The translations under genes were made by a program, and so were the position numbers. This document shows, in pieces, positions 18,597 to 48,947 of a stretch of DNA of 64,000 bases. The DNA is taken from positions 1 through 64,000 of the IMG/VR virus record IMGVR_UViG_3300027753_000007; one strand, 5' to 3'. The notes beneath the pieces are model-generated. The model was given only the letters and a program-made list of their open reading frames with translations, was not told where the DNA came from and made no database searches. This DNA comes from a virus (lineage: Duplodnaviria; Caudoviricetes). Numbering within the stretch: the first letter of the stretch is position 1; each line of letters opens with the position of its first letter.

Positions 18597-18986
18597 TTAC
18601 CCTTCATATTTTTTCTTTAGTTCCAAATATAATTCATACCTTGCTTTCTCTTGCTGAATCTCTGCTTCGGCTTTACGAGTAGCTTCGTGTTCTTTTGCAA
18701 TCCGTTTTTGTTCTGCAAGTTTGGCATCTTCTAATTCTCGCCAATTGTCGAGATATAAATATGTCGCTGGGATTGTGTACCACTCGCTACACGCTTCTCC
18801 ACACCAATATGATGATTCGATATATATCTCACCTTCAGCAATACCATCGGCTTCGATATCGACGTTGTCCAGCGTTCCAGTTCCATATTCTTTCAAATAA
18901 TCTTTAGCTAATAGTCGTGCCCGTTCTTCAAGGAAATTATATCCGCCAACCGCCGCTATATATTCTTCTTTGCTCATGTAAGACAT
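18597..18986 (-). CDS. Hypothetical protein with C-terminal coiled coil
   Basis: 129 aa, SD GAGG, directly follows 18987..19469. Confidence 0.7.
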   Translation of the reverse strand: MSYMSKEEYIAAVGGYNFLEERARLLAKDYLKEYGTGTLDNVDIEADGIAEGEIYIESSYWCGEACSEWYTIPATYLYLDNWRELEDAKLAEQKRIAKEHEATRKAEAEIQQEKARYELYLELKKKYEG

Positions 18987-19469
18987 TTAAGCTACCTCCT
19001 CATTGAGGTATTCTTCCAATATTTGAGATAGTTCAACATATACTTCAGTTGGTAATTCTCCAAACGGCAGAGCTAATTTTTTTCTATAGTTAGCTAGATG
19101 TTTATAGCCAACTGTCGCATCCATATACTTTGGTAAAAAATATCTTGTATTCCACATTATGTGGGTTAGGTTTGCTGCTAACCCACAATACACATCTTCT
19201 CCTTTAGCAGGTGTGAAACCTCTGTCGGCCGGGTAGCCGCGCAACAGATTATAGAGCATGTAGTGTTCTGGGCCGAGCGCCGTAAATTTCGTTTTGGCGT
19301 ATACACGATCTGCGGTGGAGGGTGCTAGCCAGTACGTAACGTCTACGTCCTCATACCATACGAGTTTGCCGTTGTTGTGGAAGTCCTTCCACGCCTGTCT
19401 GAATTTTAAGTAGTCTTCTTTTGTAGCAAAGAACCGTGTCTTCGCGTCTTCGATTTGTAAAGTTTTCAT
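18987..19469 (-). CDS. Hypothetical protein (HYMLYNLLRG..RGFTP) whose RBS is sequestered by the leader hairpin
   Basis: 160 aa; SD AGGAG at 19475-19479. Confidence 0.75.
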   Translation of the reverse strand: MKTLQIEDAKTRFFATKEDYLKFRQAWKDFHNNGKLVWYEDVDVTYWLAPSTADRVYAKTKFTALGPEHYMLYNLLRGYPADRGFTPAKGEDVYCGLAANLTHIMWNTRYFLPKYMDATVGYKHLANYRKKLALPFGELPTEVYVELSQILEEYLNEEVA

Positions 19470-19528
19470 GTTAGTCTCCTAATTTTGTGTTATTGATTTG
19501 CGATTGCTTTTTGATGGGTCAATAACAA

Positions 19529-19561
19529 TTAGGGACCACGAATAAAATATACCTACGTCAT
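19529..19561 (-). promoter_or_regulatory. Leader minigene MT(UAG)VYFIRGP(UAA), putative amber-readthrough sensor
   Basis: AAGGAG-AAAATT-ATG ACG TAG GTA TAT TTT ATT CGT GGT CCC TAA read directly; 3-prime end pairs with downstream SD. Confidence 0.7.
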
Positions 19562-19599
19562 AATTTTCTCCTTTTGTGTTTTCATTATATATGTATTTA

Positions 19600-41450: not shown

Positions 41451-41627
41451 TTAACAGGTGCTCTTATTTATGGAAAAGTTTACTATATCTTTTTTGGCGA
41501 TTCTGCCTTTTTCTTCGAAGAAAATATAGCTGCTTTTTGAATCTAAAAACTTGTCAACAAACACTGTTCCATCCTTTAGCTTGATGCGAACACGCTTTCC
41601 TTTGTACGTTGACGAGTGGGTGGTCAT
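41451..41627 (-). CDS. Small Sm/SH3-like protein
   Basis: KGKRVRIKLKDG; TAATG coupling. Confidence 0.55.
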   Translation of the reverse strand: MTTHSSTYKGKRVRIKLKDGTVFVDKFLDSKSSYIFFEEKGRIAKKDIVNFSINKSTC

Positions 41628-42124
41628 TATTGTGTCCACCCACAATCTTCGTCAACCATTGCGCTTGTTTTATCGACCCAAGTTTCCCAGGATTCTATCT
41701 GCTTCGCGGTGCAAATTATTTCACCAGTGAGGCACACGTTCAGATTACGGATCATCGTCTCTTTCATAAATTGTGATTGCTCGCACCTAGTCGTTGGACG
41801 GGTGTAACCGGAGCTAAGTTCATACTCGAGAGATGCCTGAGATACAAGCCACACCAGACCAATCAATGCCGTCAGCACAAAACCACCCAGTACCACATTA
41901 TTACGGGTTGTAAGCTTGTGTGGTGTTTCGTCTGGCTTATCTTTACTGCCCACAATGCTCATCCTTATCAGACCAACGCAGGTGCAAATCAAAAATAGAA
42001 AAACAACACCCCACCTTATAGGATTTGGCAACGCCATACCTAAGATCTTAGCCACCGCACCTATTATTGTTATCGAGATTAGTGTGCTGGCAGCGTAAAA
42101 GAAGCCCTTCCAAAACTCGTTCAC
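41627..42124 (-). CDS. Membrane protein with three TM segments
   Basis: Hydrophobic segments followed by a soluble Cys-containing domain. Confidence 0.65.
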   Translation of the reverse strand: MNEFWKGFFYAASTLISITIIGAVAKILGMALPNPIRWGVVFLFLICTCVGLIRMSIVGSKDKPDETPHKLTTRNNVVLGGFVLTALIGLVWLVSQASLEYELSSGYTRPTTRCEQSQFMKETMIRNLNVCLTGEIICTAKQIESWETWVDKTSAMVDEDCGWTQ

Positions 42125-42133
42125 AACCCTCTC

Positions 42134-43285
42134 CTATTTTACAATCTTCAGGATTATCATATCCGCGCTTGTGCGGGCCTTTAGCTTGTGATCGACTGCC
42201 TTGATGTCCTCAAAGAACGTGCGCAGGGCGACCTTGCCAGCCTTTTGGAACTCTTTCAACTGTTCCTTAGGCTTGCGCAAACTCTTGTTGCGAGACTTGT
42301 CTTCAGAGAAGTTGGTGATGCTCGAACCCTTAACACCGAGACCTGCATCGTCTGCTGCTACATAGCGTCCCAGCTTGCGATACTTGGTATTATAAATCCA
42401 AATCATCTGCGCGCCGACGATATCCCGCGGGTTGAGACTTGCAAGCCCAAGCTCATCGTCTTTTTCCTTGTACTTCAGTTTCGCAACCAGTTTGTCCACG
42501 CTTACAGCCTTCTTCTTACGAGGAGCCTTCTGCGCCTTCTGTACTTTGACCGCAACATTGACCGCAGTCATAATGCTTTCCAGCAATGCAATCATCTTCT
42601 TCAACTGCGCCTTGCTGAGGTTACTGTAGCCTTCCTTCAGGTCAGCGTCTTCACCAGCCAACGCTGCCTTCAATTCTTCGAGGTCGTCTTCGTAGAACTT
42701 TTTGATCCAGCGGGTGTGACCAGCCTTCAAGCCACCGACGGTGATGGCGGTCGTAGGATTCATCTTATCTGTAATATTTGCCTTCGGGTCAGTAGCCAGC
42801 ATGTCTAACCAACCGTCAAATTCTTGCGCCACGCTTGCGGCCTGGTCGCGCATCCGATCTTGGATCGTAGCCTTCGGACGAGAGCTAACAACCTTACTAG
42901 CCGCCTTAGCAGCCGCTTTCTGTTCAGCGCGGATTGCCCGTGCCCGAACCATCAGTCGTTCGATGCCTGCGGGGAAGCCCACTGCGAAACTCTCAGGCAG
43001 TTCGCCACCAGCGTTAATAATCAGCGCCAGCTTGCCCACAGTCTGAAAATCCTTGTCACTAAGCAAACCCAAAAGCTTGTGATCCAGCTTCTGAGCCTTG
43101 GCGTATTTGAGCATTTCCTTCTTCAGTTGCTTGTCAGCAACGTCATACTGGGCGTAATGCAATGCGCCGTAGAAGAGGCGCGTAAAGTCTTTGTTAGTGG
43201 ATACCACATTGGAGAGATCGGGACCTACTAGAATCTTCCGACCTTTCGCTTTCAAACCTTTCTTCTTACGTCTTAATGAGATCAT
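42134..43285 (-). CDS. Conserved early basic hypothetical protein
   Basis: 383 aa; IYNTKYRKLG..GVKGSSI..SLRKP; strong promoter upstream. Confidence 0.75.
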   Translation of the reverse strand: MISLRRKKKGLKAKGRKILVGPDLSNVVSTNKDFTRLFYGALHYAQYDVADKQLKKEMLKYAKAQKLDHKLLGLLSDKDFQTVGKLALIINAGGELPESFAVGFPAGIERLMVRARAIRAEQKAAAKAASKVVSSRPKATIQDRMRDQAASVAQEFDGWLDMLATDPKANITDKMNPTTAITVGGLKAGHTRWIKKFYEDDLEELKAALAGEDADLKEGYSNLSKAQLKKMIALLESIMTAVNVAVKVQKAQKAPRKKKAVSVDKLVAKLKYKEKDDELGLASLNPRDIVGAQMIWIYNTKYRKLGRYVAADDAGLGVKGSSITNFSEDKSRNKSLRKPKEQLKEFQKAGKVALRTFFEDIKAVDHKLKARTSADMIILKIVK

Positions 43286-44457: not shown

Positions 44458-45318
44458 TTAGATTGTGTTCTCGTATGTAAATAATGTCTTCAATGAATTT
44501 TCATCGGAGACAGGGTTTTCGTTTATTGGCGACACCTTAATGAACACGGTCTTAGGATCAAACTGTGTTCTTAGGTGGTTGGCGTCAAATGGTGTGCCTT
44601 CAGCAAGAGCAAAATTCAGCGTTGCTTTCCAAGGGCGGTTTGGGAACCTGTAGTACCAAGATGCTGCCAACTTGCCAATGTCTTCATTGGACATAACTGT
44701 AATAGACTGTAGCCACTTGCGGTATTCGTCGTCTGTGCTGTGGATACTAAATTGCAGCTCTAACCAATCGTTTCCGTATATTTCTTCAAGCACCATCAAT
44801 TGATCTACCAGTTCTACTGACCTTGGAATACCAATAGTGGAAACTTGGATGCGAGCTTTCGGGAACATTACCTTGATGCGATTAACTGCCTGCACAACTT
44901 CATCTATGTTCATCGCAGGCTCGCCCATCCTCGTAAACAACACCCTAAAAATTCCGCTGTCGTTTGGATCAAGACCACCGTTGATCTTTTGTGCTTCCGC
45001 AATCGCATACGTTACTTGGTCTACCATTTCTTGGGCAGTAAGATTACGCCAGTGTTGCTTATCCGTCAAGCGGTTGACCGCACAAAATTTGCATTTGATT
45101 GGGCAACCAGACTGTGTGCTAATGCCTACCGTCCACTTCTCCTTCCAGTTTTGAATCGAGAAGGCATTAGCATCCACTTTGTTGTCTTTGCGGTGGGTAT
45201 TACGCACCTCAGTTTGACCAGGTAAGCAGGTCGAGGTTGTTTCAATCAGCAAATTGTCATTCAATTGCACAACTGATACAAAACCGTTTGTGAACTGTTT
45301 TGTTTTTAGAGCGTTCAT
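44458..45318 (-). CDS. RlmN/Cfr-family radical SAM protein lacking its C-terminal Cys segment
   Basis: ISTQSGCPIKCKFC, RMGEPAMN, VSTIG, QFSIHS. Confidence 0.85.
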   Translation of the reverse strand: MNALKTKQFTNGFVSVVQLNDNLLIETTSTCLPGQTEVRNTHRKDNKVDANAFSIQNWKEKWTVGISTQSGCPIKCKFCAVNRLTDKQHWRNLTAQEMVDQVTYAIAEAQKINGGLDPNDSGIFRVLFTRMGEPAMNIDEVVQAVNRIKVMFPKARIQVSTIGIPRSVELVDQLMVLEEIYGNDWLELQFSIHSTDDEYRKWLQSITVMSNEDIGKLAASWYYRFPNRPWKATLNFALAEGTPFDANHLRTQFDPKTVFIKVSPINENPVSDENSLKTLFTYENTI

Positions 45319-46820
45319 TACGCCACCTCGCTTTCAACCTTTGCAGTGTGTACACGTTCCTCAGGCAGTTTTGCGTTTTCGCGCACCTGCTCAAAGTTCA
45401 TGTCTCGCACAAGCTTGCCATGATCGTATACAGTCTCAAGCATTGCCTTGTAACCGTCAGCTACGTATTCAGCAACTTCCTCAACTCGCACTGTCTTGTA
45501 GTCTGTACCGTTGTACAGCAATTCCAAGCGACCAGCTTTGGACTTCTTAAAACTTGAAGCGAGGGGCTTCCAGCTTGTTGCATCGTAGATAGTCGGATCT
45601 TTGTACACATCATGCCACACACCGTCAACATGAACCGCGCAAGCCTTCATCGCAAACTTGAGGGTGTCCCTGTTATTTTTTTGCAGCAAGCCGCCGCCCA
45701 TACCAAACGCAATGTTGCTAATGCTAAACTGTTCAGCTTCCAGCTTCTCAACAATTGCTCGCACATCGTTAATGTCAATGCCGTCACCTTGGATCACGCG
45801 CACACCGTCAAGAACTTTAAAGCCTTTCTTGTTGTACGTAAATCCAAAGATCCTGGACAACCTGCGCACCAATTCGACAGGGGTCTCAACTGCATCGCCG
45901 CTGTCAGGACGGATGACCCAAGTCGCGCCGCTTTCGCGTAACTGCTTCTTAAACTTGGGAGCAATCGTTTCCACAAAGTTCATAATGTCGTAACTGTCAG
46001 CGACCGTAGCGAAAATTGCGCCAGGTTTTGCAAAGTTGTCAAACATACGCTGCACCAGTGCCTCTTCGCCGTGGCGTCCAAAGCTTGTGGTCGTGCTATG
46101 TTCTGTAGCAGGAATGCTGTAGCCAGCCATTTGCGTGTTATAGCCGATGTTCGCAGCCATAATACCCACTGTCGTATCGCTTCCGAGGAAGTTTACAAGG
46201 TGAGCAGCACCTGCAAATGCAGCGGTTTCCAAACTACTCACACCACGTGAACCAAAGTCATGCAGTTTAAAACCGATTTCTGCATCAGCGTCGTCGGCTG
46301 TGCGCTTCAGTGCGTTGTAGATGATCTTTTTAATGTGGTAGGATGTCGTTGCAACCGTTGTAGGTGACCAGAGCCTCATCAGCTTGGTTTCCATGTATGT
46401 GACCAGCGAGAATACGCGCGGATCTTCCACGGTCGTCTCAACTGTCACCAACACGTTGCCCGTAGGAACCACTGTGCCTTCTTGGACTGCTTTGATTCGC
46501 AGCGGCATGTAGCCGTCGTAGTCGTCAACTACTGCTCGTAGCGCAACCTCAAGCTTGTCAATTTCTACACCAAATAGGTGTTCACGCTGGAAGGCGATGA
46601 TGTTGTCCACTTGTTTGTGGGTCATTCTTTCCAGGAAGTATTCTTTGAGGATTAGCTGCAATCCGAAGAATACCACTTCTTTATAATCGCCGCCTCTGCT
46701 CTCAATGTAGCTCATCAGCTTGTCAGCACCTTCTACATACTGTGCAGGGTGCGAAAATTTGTAGCTGTCTGTATCGCCAGCAACGCCATATGTTTCTCTA
46801 ATTTCATTTAAAATGCTCAT
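45318..46820 (-). CDS. nadV: Nicotinamide phosphoribosyltransferase
   Basis: TDSYKFSH, LHDFGSRG, IPATEHS, VADSYD, IRPDSGD, IQGDG, FGMGGGLLQ. Confidence 0.95.
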   Translation of the reverse strand: MSILNEIRETYGVAGDTDSYKFSHPAQYVEGADKLMSYIESRGGDYKEVVFFGLQLILKEYFLERMTHKQVDNIIAFQREHLFGVEIDKLEVALRAVVDDYDGYMPLRIKAVQEGTVVPTGNVLVTVETTVEDPRVFSLVTYMETKLMRLWSPTTVATTSYHIKKIIYNALKRTADDADAEIGFKLHDFGSRGVSSLETAAFAGAAHLVNFLGSDTTVGIMAANIGYNTQMAGYSIPATEHSTTTSFGRHGEEALVQRMFDNFAKPGAIFATVADSYDIMNFVETIAPKFKKQLRESGATWVIRPDSGDAVETPVELVRRLSRIFGFTYNKKGFKVLDGVRVIQGDGIDINDVRAIVEKLEAEQFSISNIAFGMGGGLLQKNNRDTLKFAMKACAVHVDGVWHDVYKDPTIYDATSWKPLASSFKKSKAGRLELLYNGTDYKTVRVEEVAEYVADGYKAMLETVYDHGKLVRDMNFEQVRENAKLPEERVHTAKVESEVA

Positions 46821-47560: not shown

Positions 47561-47904
47561 TTCTTGCTCCACGTATATTGACTGGGATTCTGCGCTTCCA
47601 ATATTAGTTGCATTTCTACTTCGCGAGCCTTACGTTCTGCTTGCTTCTGTCCCTCAGTCTTAAACAATGTGTCTGTGGTGTTTGCCAAATTGTGTTTAAA
47701 ATATAGCTTGTCAGCTTCACGCCTCGTAGCAAACACTTCTTCCTTCTTCCAACGTTCCAAGCTTCCTTGCATTACGTTGTCGTTAATATGCATCATCAGT
47801 TTGTATTCTTTCAATATGCTACGTATGTTCGTAGTGTGACCTACCACACGTGCCTTAACTACACCAAGTGCCGTCACTGCATATACCGTTTCACCAAATC
47901 TCAT
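47557..47904 (-). CDS. Hypothetical protein
   Basis: ATGA-coupled to NadM-Nudix. Confidence 0.6.
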   Translation of the reverse strand: MRFGETVYAVTALGVVKARVVGHTTNIRSILKEYKLMMHINDNVMQGSLERWKKEEVFATRREADKLYFKHNLANTTDTLFKTEGQKQAERKAREVEMQLILEAQNPSQYTWSKK

Positions 47905-48947
47905 TGGTCAGCCCTCGTTGTAAGCATGTTGATGATTGACTTGTGGTCCTCAAACAGCGAGTGAGACATGTTCTTAACTGTGTCTAGCGCGAACCACTTT
48001 GCTGTTTCCGCATCGTCGCCGCCTTTCACTTTTGGCAGTGAGGGCTGGTCGGGTAGGTCAAACAAAAACGCTTGTGTAATTGTGCGACCACGTAATGACC
48101 TGCTAGGGTGGTCAAACAGTTTGCGGGCTTTGCATGATCCGCGCAACACTGCTTCCGGCACCTTCAATCTGGTTTCTTCCTTCAGTTCGCGTATTGCGCT
48201 ATCAAACGCAGTCTCGTCTTGACCGAGGAAGCCGCCAGGAAGTGCCCAGAGACCCTTGCCTGGTTCTGCGCGCCGCCTAATAAGTAGGATGTGTCCGCCC
48301 TGTATTACAACTGCGTCTGTGGTGAAAAATGTCACAGGATATGGCGTGTGCGCCCATGCAGTTTTGTACGTGCGGATGTAATTGAATTCTTTAACAAGCT
48401 GGGCGTATGCCTCAGTGTCTTTGAAGGTCATCAGCGTCTCGTAAACTGACACTGGCAGTGCCGATTTTATGTAGCTAAAATGTCCTTCAAAATATAGTTC
48501 GCGTATCTTCGTTGCGTCAATTGCAGTGCCGCCAGCCTCAGCGTATGCACCAATAGTCGTAAAGTCCCAGGTCGGGAAGCTTTTTAGGTAGTAGCTGGAA
48601 TCATCTTTTTCATGACCGAGGATTGTAATGTCCTCGTCGTTTGTTTCCCAGTTGTGGACTGCGGCTTGGACAGCCTCCAGCCATTTTGTTTCTTGGTATA
48701 GGTCATCTTCAACAGATGCTACCCGCACTCGCCAATTTCCTTCGGCTTTGGTGCCCCAAAGAGATTCTATTTGGGCTGTGCGTTCTTCAACTGTAAAGGG
48801 ATTTTTGATTGTGCGCGGCTCATTGGACGAGCCTAAGACCACAAGAACCTGGTCTGCAATTTCTAAAGCTTTGTTTATGTTTTGGACGTGCCCGTTGTGT
48901 AGTGGCTGCATCCTGCCGATGAATACGGCTAATTTGTATTTACGCAT
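47901..48947 (-). CDS. natV: Bifunctional NMN adenylyltransferase / ADP-ribose pyrophosphatase (NadM-Nudix)
   Basis: GRMQPLHNGH, NPF; Nudix box PGGF..ETAFDSAIRELKEETRL; GGDDA. Confidence 0.93.
   Translation of the reverse strand: MRKYKLAVFIGRMQPLHNGHVQNINKALEIADQVLVVLGSSNEPRTIKNPFTVEERTAQIESLWGTKAEGNWRVRVASVEDDLYQETKWLEAVQAAVHNWETNDEDITILGHEKDDSSYYLKSFPTWDFTTIGAYAEAGGTAIDATKIRELYFEGHFSYIKSALPVSVYETLMTFKDTEAYAQLVKEFNYIRTYKTAWAHTPYPVTFFTTDAVVIQGGHILLIRRRAEPGKGLWALPGGFLGQDETAFDSAIRELKEETRLKVPEAVLRGSCKARKLFDHPSRSLRGRTITQAFLFDLPDQPSLPKVKGGDDAETAKWFALDTVKNMSHSLFEDHKSIINMLTTRADQ

Follow-up and report, generated by a model that had tools for sequence, protein, structure and literature searches.

An amber-interrupted leader and a Shine-Dalgarno-sequestering hairpin form a putative switch for stop codon read-through in a T4-like phage

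Introduction

Why would a phage gene whose Shine-Dalgarno (SD) sequence is buried in an RNA hairpin be preceded by an eleven-codon leader with an amber codon at its third position? A first-pass annotation, made from the DNA sequence alone, had proposed that the hairpin locks the SD unless a ribosome passes the amber codon. The locus was examined here by RNA folding, comparison with homologous loci, tRNA searches and structure prediction.

The stretch analysed, called the window below, covers the first 64 kb of an IMG/VR phage record that is 77 kb long and has a completeness of 21% (CheckV). The record has a GC content of 43.5% and encodes a T4-type large terminase, a tail sheath, a DnaB-like helicase, a RecA/UvsX-like protein and a UvsW-like helicase. 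It also carries a NAD-salvage pair at 45318-46820 and 47901-48947 on the minus strand, consisting of NAMPT and an NMNAT-Nudix fusion similar to NadR/NatV. Large T4-like vibriophages have a parallel pair. The T4-type terminase, sheath, helicases and NAD-salvage pair place the record in a large T4-like myovirus. The region gave no blastn match among GenBank phages.

Results

The phage reads TAG as a stop codon outside the leader

Stop codon usage was examined in 91 ORFs. TAA is the commonest stop (65/91) and TAG ends 14/91. Reading TAG as a sense codon gave no gain in coding coverage (0.920 vs 0.926 across the 77-kb record, 21% of the genome). The terminase, sheath, DnaB-like helicase and RecA-like genes are uninterrupted under code 11, as are the UvsW-like helicase gene and the NAD-salvage pair. 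Genome-wide recoding of TAG (code 15) is ruled out by the flat coding density and the intact late genes in this 21% of the genome. Outside the leader the phage reads the standard code.

Another possible TAG-joined gene, 42134-43285 plus 41627-42124, was rejected. These are separate genes; the PHROG match stops at the TAG, which falls within the SD of the next gene. Neither PTH2 nor RF-1 domains were found in the 77-kb record.

An amber codon interrupts a short leader ORF

The leader and the gene that it precedes have the following parts.

19568..19573, minus strand: leader SD AAGGAG, read directly, 6 nt 5' of the leader ATG
19553..19561, minus strand: leader mini-ORF ATG-ACG-TAG (Met-Thr-amber), with ATG at 19561-19559 and TAG at 19555-19553
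19529..19552, minus strand: read-through extension GTA TAT TTT ATT CGT GGT CCC TAA (V-Y-F-I-R-G-P-stop), in the same frame as the mini-ORF
19473..19537, minus strand: SD-sequestering hairpin, from folding, covariance model R1 and alignment A4
19476..19480, minus strand: SD AGGAG of the 160-aa gene, within the 3' arm of the hairpin
18987..19469, minus strand: gene of 160 aa under the proposed control, with ATG at 19469-19467, from homologues and alignments

The leader has 11 codons, both stops included, and its read-through product would be 10 residues long. No ATG, GTG or TTG lies in frame after the TAG, so ribosomes reach the downstream frame only via the amber codon. The spacer between the TAG and the first base of the stem was checked base by base and is exactly 15 nt (19552-19538), the distance that the first-pass annotation had given. 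Just one copy of the combination of SD, TAG-containing leader and SD hairpin is present in the 77-kb record.

Directly 5' of the leader is an ORF of 42 aa (19600-19728, minus strand) that has one hydrophobic segment. In relatives one or two small membrane-protein ORFs are found there, and the last stop often overlaps the leader ATG (ATGA). The 9-nt string AACACAAAA precedes the ribosome binding sites of the leader and of the main gene alike (19572-19580 and 19484-19492, minus strand), which suggests that the leader site was derived by local duplication.

A conserved hairpin buries the SD of the 160-aa gene

The annotation had paired 19537-19519 with 19496-19473 such that AGGAG is buried, and on re-reading these coordinates proved exact. 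Base by base, GGTCCCTAATTGTTATTGA (19537-19519) pairs with TCAATAAC-(ACAA)-AATTAGG-(A)-GACT (19496-19473). The outer stem joins the Gly-Pro-stop codons to the SD region, the middle stem joins 19526-19519 to 19496-19489, and the apical region holds GCAATCGC (19507-19500). Within AGGAG (19480-19476), AGG and the final G are buried.

An RNA fold, which had been suggested as a check, was carried out with ViennaRNA and returned the hairpin as both the minimum free energy (MFE) and the centroid structure. The 80-nt segment 19545-19466 folds at -17.8 kcal/mol, compared with -7.7 +/- 2.3 for dinucleotide shuffles (z = -4.43; 0/200 shuffles as good). In a 166-nt context the hairpin is again the MFE and centroid structure, with an overall z of only -1.8.

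To compare the structure among relatives, covariance model R1 was made from a hand-specified three-helix structure. Its 20 hits were realigned and 19 distinct leaders were counted. Standard pairs occupy 95.9% of cells in the 19 leaders, against a shuffled mean of 83.0% (0/500 shuffles as good), in an alignment that was fitted to the model and favours structure. Compensatory double changes were observed in 12/21 pairs, or 4/9, 6/8 and 2/4 by helix. When the 3' partners were slid by 1-3 columns, pairing fell to 35-48%. Single-sequence folds of 18 leaders, which are independent of the model alignment, gave the same architecture in all. RNAalifold, applied to a plain MAFFT alignment, recovered the middle and apical helices and missed the outer stem. 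This was due to register shifts in the MAFFT alignment, and the outer stem was recovered by the covariance-model alignment. The anti-SD consists of the Pro codon or codons and the stop, as in CCUAAUAA paired with UUAUUAGG and CCUUAAAUG paired with CAUUUAAGG. Recurrence of the hairpin with compensatory changes in 19 related sequences far exceeds chance.

The apical hairpin reads GAGC-AUUC-GCUC and its stem covaries to GGGC/GCCC. The loop GCA(U/A)UCGC is nearly invariant (columns 75-86 of alignments A3/A4). It has no part in the switch model described below and is a possible recognition site for a protein or RNase. Pairing of the loop with the T-loop of the tRNA was rejected, as no consistent covariation was observed across loci.

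The frame past the amber codon is conserved as a coding sequence

Homologous loci were collected from IMG/VR, JGI, ENA, NCBI and Logan assemblies, and IMG/VR was also scanned with a DNA pattern. Three of the 12 scan matches (L044, L046, L051) were chance matches without the SD, the Arg or the target gene and were discarded. Every locus with enough upstream DNA (19 distinct leaders) possesses the SD, ATG-NNN-TAG, seven sense codons, TAA and the SD hairpin. The leader SD is of the GGAG/GAGG type and at the same place in all related leaders. ATG, TAG and TAA are invariant in 16/16 distinct 33-nt mini-ORFs, with ACA, ACG, TTG, ATG or AAA as codon 2. A purine directly follows the TAG in all 16. Bossi, and Miller and Albertini, both in 1983, are said to have found that a purine after UAG favours suppression in E. 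coli.

In the close group the peptide encoded past the TAG has the consensus x-[Y/N]-x-I-R-[G/P]-P. The invariant Arg (codon 8) is encoded by CGT (5), CGC (5) or AGA (6), and two near-identical leaders, both I-N-A-I-R-G-P, differ by AGA vs CGT. Position 9 is GGT, GGC, CCA or CCT, and Ile is ATA or ATT. Codon differences counted over all pairs of these related leaders are 254:341 (synonymous to nonsynonymous) for the whole extension, compared with 32:579 and 64:537 when the other two frames are counted. Restricted to the last four codons, the ratio is 219:70, compared with 0:319 and 53:255. Because the leaders share common descent, the pairwise counts and the shuffle controls overstate independence. 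Furthermore, the Pro and stop codons are also bound by pairing with the SD, so a clean signal of selection on the peptide comes only from the Arg, Ile and G/P positions. These lie outside the stem or at its edge and have a clear coding pattern.

The leader could in principle be an ordinary structured 5' untranslated region with a two-codon minigene (ATG-NNN-stop), conserved downstream as an operator that binds RNA or protein. Two-codon minigenes that have strong SDs are known, the lambda bar minigenes among them, and the near-invariant apical loop, for which the switch has no explanation, could bind a protein. However, TAG was replaced by TAA or TGA in none of more than 20 lineages, though TAA is by far the preferred stop of this genome. 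The seven-codon frame to the TAA is free of indels, an excess of synonymous changes is confined to the read-through frame, and the co-location with tRNA-CUA genes described below would be left unexplained. An operator behind a minigene is therefore very unlikely.

Distant homologues retain the TAG and the Pro-rich anti-SD

More distant loci were identified by target proteins that match the profile at E values of 1e-36 to 1e-13. Their leaders, the position of the second stop and the presence of a tRNA-CUA gene are as follows.

L052: M-T-stop-VYYIRGP-stop; TAA in the stem; tRNA-CUA nearby
L054: M-K-H-stop-VYYIRGP-stop; TAA in the stem; flank short for tRNA-CUA
L055: M-stop-VYITGPP-stop; TAA in the stem; tRNA-CUA nearby
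L059: MKKVTDN-stop-VPHSTGPP-stop; TGA; tRNA-CUA nearby
L058: MMT-stop-VHQYKTGPP...; TGA overlapping the main ATG; flank short for tRNA-CUA
L060: MK-stop-VFHNTGPP...; TGA overlapping the main ATG; no tRNA-CUA within 1 kb
L056/57: MKKITSC-stop-IDSKIRGSP...; TGA inside the main SD region; tRNA-CUA nearby

The in-frame stop is TAG in all of these sampled loci and follows 1-7 sense codons, the start ATG included. IRGP, TGPP or IRGSP is encoded past the TAG, with Thr in place of Arg in the TGPP group, and the Pro-rich codons always form the anti-SD. Model R1 matched L052 and L054 at E values of about 1e-12 and L055, L058, L059 and L060 at 2e-5 to 5e-4. The overlap of the TGA with the main ATG in L058 and L060 would couple translation of the two frames directly. 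To judge from these ATGA-overlap variants, the conserved trait would be delivery of a read-through ribosome to the main start rather than the position of the stop.

Several neighbouring features were observed at the distant loci. A 204-aa release-factor homologue with PCRF and RF-1 domains (L056:1-261, L057:1-261) lies 2.2 kb 5' of the tRNA-CUA, leader and target. Genes for an HNH endonuclease and a peptide deformylase are found within 2-3 kb 3' of the target in L055, L059 and L060, which would fit a translation-related neighbourhood. A good sigma-70-type promoter (TTGACA, 17 nt, TATAAT-like) lies between the tRNA-CUA gene and the leader at L055:2330-2400, L056:2290-2400 and L059:480-600. The switch at these loci has its own transcription start.

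A predicted suppressor tRNA gene accompanies the leader

A tRNA gene is located upstream of the leader in the window.

20325..20400, minus strand: tRNA gene with anticodon CUA (predicted amber suppressor), CCA encoded, from ARAGORN and Rfam RF00005 (52.2 bits)

It is the sole tRNA gene in the 77-kb record, lies 763 nt 5' of the leader on the same strand, and has two mismatches in the anticodon stem. A second, type-2 tRNA-CUA was not found in the 77 kb by ARAGORN, Rfam or blastn. In all close lineages with at least 1.5 kb of upstream flank (14/14), the leader is preceded on its own strand, at a distance of 129-1600 nt, by one or two tRNA-CUA genes; that of L036 was detected by Rfam only. No other tRNA species was found in these 14 loci, even with 9-14 kb of flank. 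Since the phage uses the standard code and TAG is an ordinary stop, the tRNA-CUA has no global recoding job. The leader appears to be its only evident target in the 77 kb.

The tRNA gene overlaps its upstream neighbour. A 156-aa nucleoside 2-deoxyribosyltransferase-like gene (PF15891) has as its stop a TAG that forms positions 8-10 of the tRNA-CUA, so that gene and tRNA share 10 nt (20391-20400, minus strand), as they also do in L004. Between the tRNA-CUA and the leader lies a 140-aa gene (19725-20147, minus strand), which in relatives is placed between two tRNA-CUA genes. Its AF2 model (pLDDT 77.6) is like the tail-tube/Hcp fold, with Foldseek similarity to Hcp, lambda gpV and T4 tube-related chains (E about 1e-3 to 1e-2, prob 1.00, TM 0.5). 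A tail-tube-like gene is oddly placed amid these small, early-looking genes.

What the leader gauges might be RF1 activity rather than the phage tRNA, with read-through rising when host RF1 is depleted, inhibited or outcompeted during infection. The readout is a competition between termination and suppression in which either partner could vary, and the release-factor homologue of L056/57, which is truncated, is encoded upstream of the leader. The tight linkage, however, is with tRNA-CUA genes, and the 77-kb record contains no release factor gene. Near-cognate read-through of UAG without a suppressor tRNA is normally very low. A leader that monitors RF1 in place of the tRNA is thus unlikely, and we favour the suppressor tRNA as the input.

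The gene downstream of the hairpin

The N-terminus MKTxQIEDAKTRFF is conserved in 38 homologues of the 160-aa protein, which establishes the ATG at 19469 as the genuine start. It also excludes the leader as a lost N-terminal piece of this gene. A profile search yielded a family of 485 cluster representatives at E<=1e-3. The AF2 model has a pLDDT of 86.7 and a pTM of 0.79. No match was found in Pfam, PHROGs, NCBIfam, PADLOC or a PDB sequence profile, and the fold gave no convincing match by Foldseek against PDB and BFVD, by VIA-align wide (best Z 4.2) or by ESM Atlas features/fold search.

One further gene follows.

18597..18986, minus strand: gene of 129 aa whose start comes directly after the 160-aa gene's stop; position variable in relatives

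Given this arrangement the 129-aa gene is probably co-translated with the 160-aa gene.

A near-identical contig from another sample (JGI Ga0208437_1000116; L003:745-1226, corresponding to 19469-18987 of the window) has a 2-nt deletion in the 160-aa gene that changes GACGTTACG to GACTACG. As a result the gene caller gives only a 90-aa C-terminal product. The deletion could reflect either an error of assembly or natural frameshift variation.

A ribosome past the amber codon would open the hairpin

The original proposal was that the SD stays locked unless a ribosome passes the amber codon. Four independent lines of comparison support it: the invariant TAG with its seven-codon spacing, selection at the peptide level past the amber, covariation of the hairpin and the presence of tRNA-CUA upstream in all close lineages with enough flank. 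The anatomy, the covarying structure, the coding-type selection and the tRNA linkage are all observed. Together they make it likely that the leader is a translational switch that reports UAG read-through and opens the SD of the 160-aa gene. Read-through by tRNA-CUA in vivo, pausing of the ribosome and activation of the gene are what we infer from them.

The switch would be off by default. Ribosomes would load at the strong leader SD, translate Met-Thr and meet the UAG. If RF1 wins, termination would occur 15 nt before the hairpin, which would remain closed and hide the SD of the 160-aa gene. If tRNA-CUA decodes the UAG, the ribosome would translate seven further codons up to the R-G-P-UAA in the 5' arm. 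There it would keep the 5' arm in the mRNA channel and free the SD, and the 160-aa gene would be translated. The 129-aa gene would probably be switched on along with it.

Ribosome positions were modelled by blocking the mRNA through P-site +15 and refolding the remainder. Averaged over 19 leaders, the probability that AGGAG is unpaired was 0.25 in free RNA and 0.25 with UAG in the A site, and rose to 0.55-0.57 with codon 9 or 10 in the P site. On average the modelled SD opens partially (0.25 to 0.55). In the window the MFE was -21.2 kcal/mol for free RNA, -20.3 when UAG occupied the A site and -4.4 when Pro was in the P site and UAA in the A site. These energies suggest that the lock stays closed upon termination at the UAG and opens with a ribosome at R-G-P/UAA.

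The refolding bears on the reverse polarity, in which suppressor tRNA or ribosomes would be titrated by the leader as a decoy or sink, with translation of the downstream gene independent of it. A strong leader SD would attract many ribosomes. Conversely, the main SD is paired in every homologue, and the only conserved route to its unpairing is a ribosome on the 5' arm. We regard a decoy as highly improbable.

The read-through ribosome may do more than transit the stem. The R-[G/P]-P-stop ending probably slows termination, which would keep the SD open longer. Such a pause at R-G-P-UAA is plausible by analogy with published stalling cases. The first-pass annotation had stated that Pro before a stop slows termination, and this is published for C-terminal Pro-Pro, which hampers termination in all contexts tested and gives peptidyl-prolyl-tRNA half-lives of 21-36 s (PMC3834316). 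Ribosomes are arrested by NSP-stop and NAP-stop peptides while the stop codon is in the A site, and RAP-stop occurs among ApcA relatives (PMC10987492). RGPP/RAPP peptides arrest ribosomes when R-G/A-P is in the P site, and their N-terminal parts can be short and varied (PMC12992588). RAPP-type arrest requires that a Pro-tRNA occupy the A site, and mutation of this Pro relieves stalling (PMC10951233). Against a pause on the leader, no such Pro-tRNA is present and the nascent chain would have a mere 10 residues.

Read-through could also gate the gene without any special arrest. Simple transit, or termination followed by re-initiation, would then open the stem, and R-[G/P]-P would be kept mainly because CCN is the anti-SD. 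The Pro codons CCU/CCC do pair directly with GGAG, and in L058 and L060 the read-through frame runs past the stem to a TGA that overlaps the main ATG, an arrangement of classical coupling. Set against this, the stem of RPP leaders does not include the Arg two codons ahead of the stop, yet this residue is invariant while its codon switches between CGY and AGA. Moreover, Pro-Pro or Gly-Pro is kept even in the coupled variants. Gating without arrest is a less probable reading than a pause at the motif, though it deserves more weight than the other alternatives considered here.

Discussion

We propose that an amber-interrupted leader controls access to the SD of the 160-aa gene through decoding of UAG. 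Full-text literature searches yielded phage stop codon recoding and arrest peptides and no description of such a leader. Its output device, a leader ORF that controls an SD hairpin, is already known from secM-secA, ermC and RAPP-like uORFs. The new part would be the input, in which a suppressor tRNA competes with RF1 for an in-frame UAG. As such the leader would be the first natural cis-acting sensor of stop codon suppression, and stop codon decoding would be a new input for regulators that act through leader or arrest peptides. The R-G-P-stop and P-P-stop endings would represent such motifs in phages, outside a protein-export context.

We know of no target so far for the suppressor tRNAs of standard-code phages. 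A leader expressed only by read-through would give them one. The 160-aa family, with its 485 cluster representatives and a confidently predicted but unmatched fold, is probably linked to suppression. Its members nearly always have tRNA-CUA genes as neighbours. A stronger version, which we offer only tentatively and consider rather doubtful as a whole, is that the leader is a natural nonsense-suppression sensor and that the controlled protein itself acts on UAG decoding, through RF1, the suppressor tRNA or the consequences of read-through. If this is true, standard-code phages carry a self-regulating suppression module of tRNA-CUA, sensor and effector. Such a module would account for orphan suppressor tRNAs, and full TAG recoding could have had its evolutionary origin in it. 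If the switch holds, the element of about 110 nt would also be a compact, ready-made amber-suppression reporter for genetic code expansion work.

The closest known systems are the RAPP-like arrest peptides, which include ApdA, ApdP, ApcA, the RAGP of SecM and the RAPP/RGPP peptides of Streptomyces (PMC7897499, PMC10987492, PMC10951233, PMC12992588). Like the leader, these are small uORFs that end in Arg, a small residue and Pro, and the stall site, putative here, lies in a stem arm that hides the SD of the next gene. The first-pass annotation had noted this resemblance to SecM RAGP and to RAPP/RGPP. It holds for the stall-in-stem layout and for the invariant Arg two residues before the P-site residue, a position occupied by codon 8 of the leader; relative to RGPP arrest, R-G-P would occupy the P site in the same register. 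It does not extend to the A site. The RAPP-like core ends with Pro-tRNA there, whereas the leader core is R-G-P-stop or R-P-P-stop, with UAA in the A site in 16/16 distinct close leaders. Because RAPP arrest needs the A-site Pro-tRNA, the leader falls outside the RAPP family and its stalling is only conjectural. The one comparable core is the RAP-stop of ApcA relatives (PMC10987492). RAPP-like monitoring substrates also carry a signal or membrane segment. The 10-residue leader product has none, so release cannot depend on force. Since the motif is reached only after read-through of the in-frame UAG, the input would be stop codon suppression, not protein export.

A second group shares a final Pro with the stop codon in the A site: TnaC (..R-P-UGA, PMC8450073), the NSP-stop and NAP-stop peptides (PMC10987492) and YbeL-PP (PMC3834316). 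Slow release keeps the ribosome on the mRNA in these cases, as a pause on the leader would. Unlike the leader, none is gated by an upstream in-frame stop. TnaC further differs in that it needs free tryptophan and works via Rho-dependent transcription termination. The ermC/ErmCL attenuator is similar in layout, with a leader ORF that has its own SD, a 5' arm that overlaps the leader frame, and access to the downstream SD set by ribosome position. Its inducer is an antibiotic in the exit tunnel, whereas that of the leader would be decoding of UAG.

Other regulators resemble the leader on the input side. The trpL, hisL and pheL attenuators and T-box leaders are cis leaders that read the availability or activity of one tRNA. 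Their signal is the charging of sense-codon tRNAs and their effect is mostly on transcription, whereas this leader would respond to a suppressor tRNA, by way of termination or read-through as the two outcomes, and would control translation initiation. In prfB (RF2) an early in-frame stop, UGA in that case, is likewise a sensor of decoding at that stop. There a +1 frameshift within the regulated gene senses RF2, while the present device would combine an SD hairpin, a suppressor tRNA and a leader separate from the gene. Code 15 phages (10.1101/2021.08.26.457843) also have a phage tRNA-CUA and share the idea that gene expression is timed by suppression. By comparison, TAG is an ordinary ORF terminator in this phage, the terminase and sheath genes have no in-frame TAG, and a single 11-codon leader is involved. 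Finally, the lambda bar-type minigene has the SD and ATG-NNN-stop that are present here, but the leader adds a frame of fixed length past the stop that is under coding-type selection.
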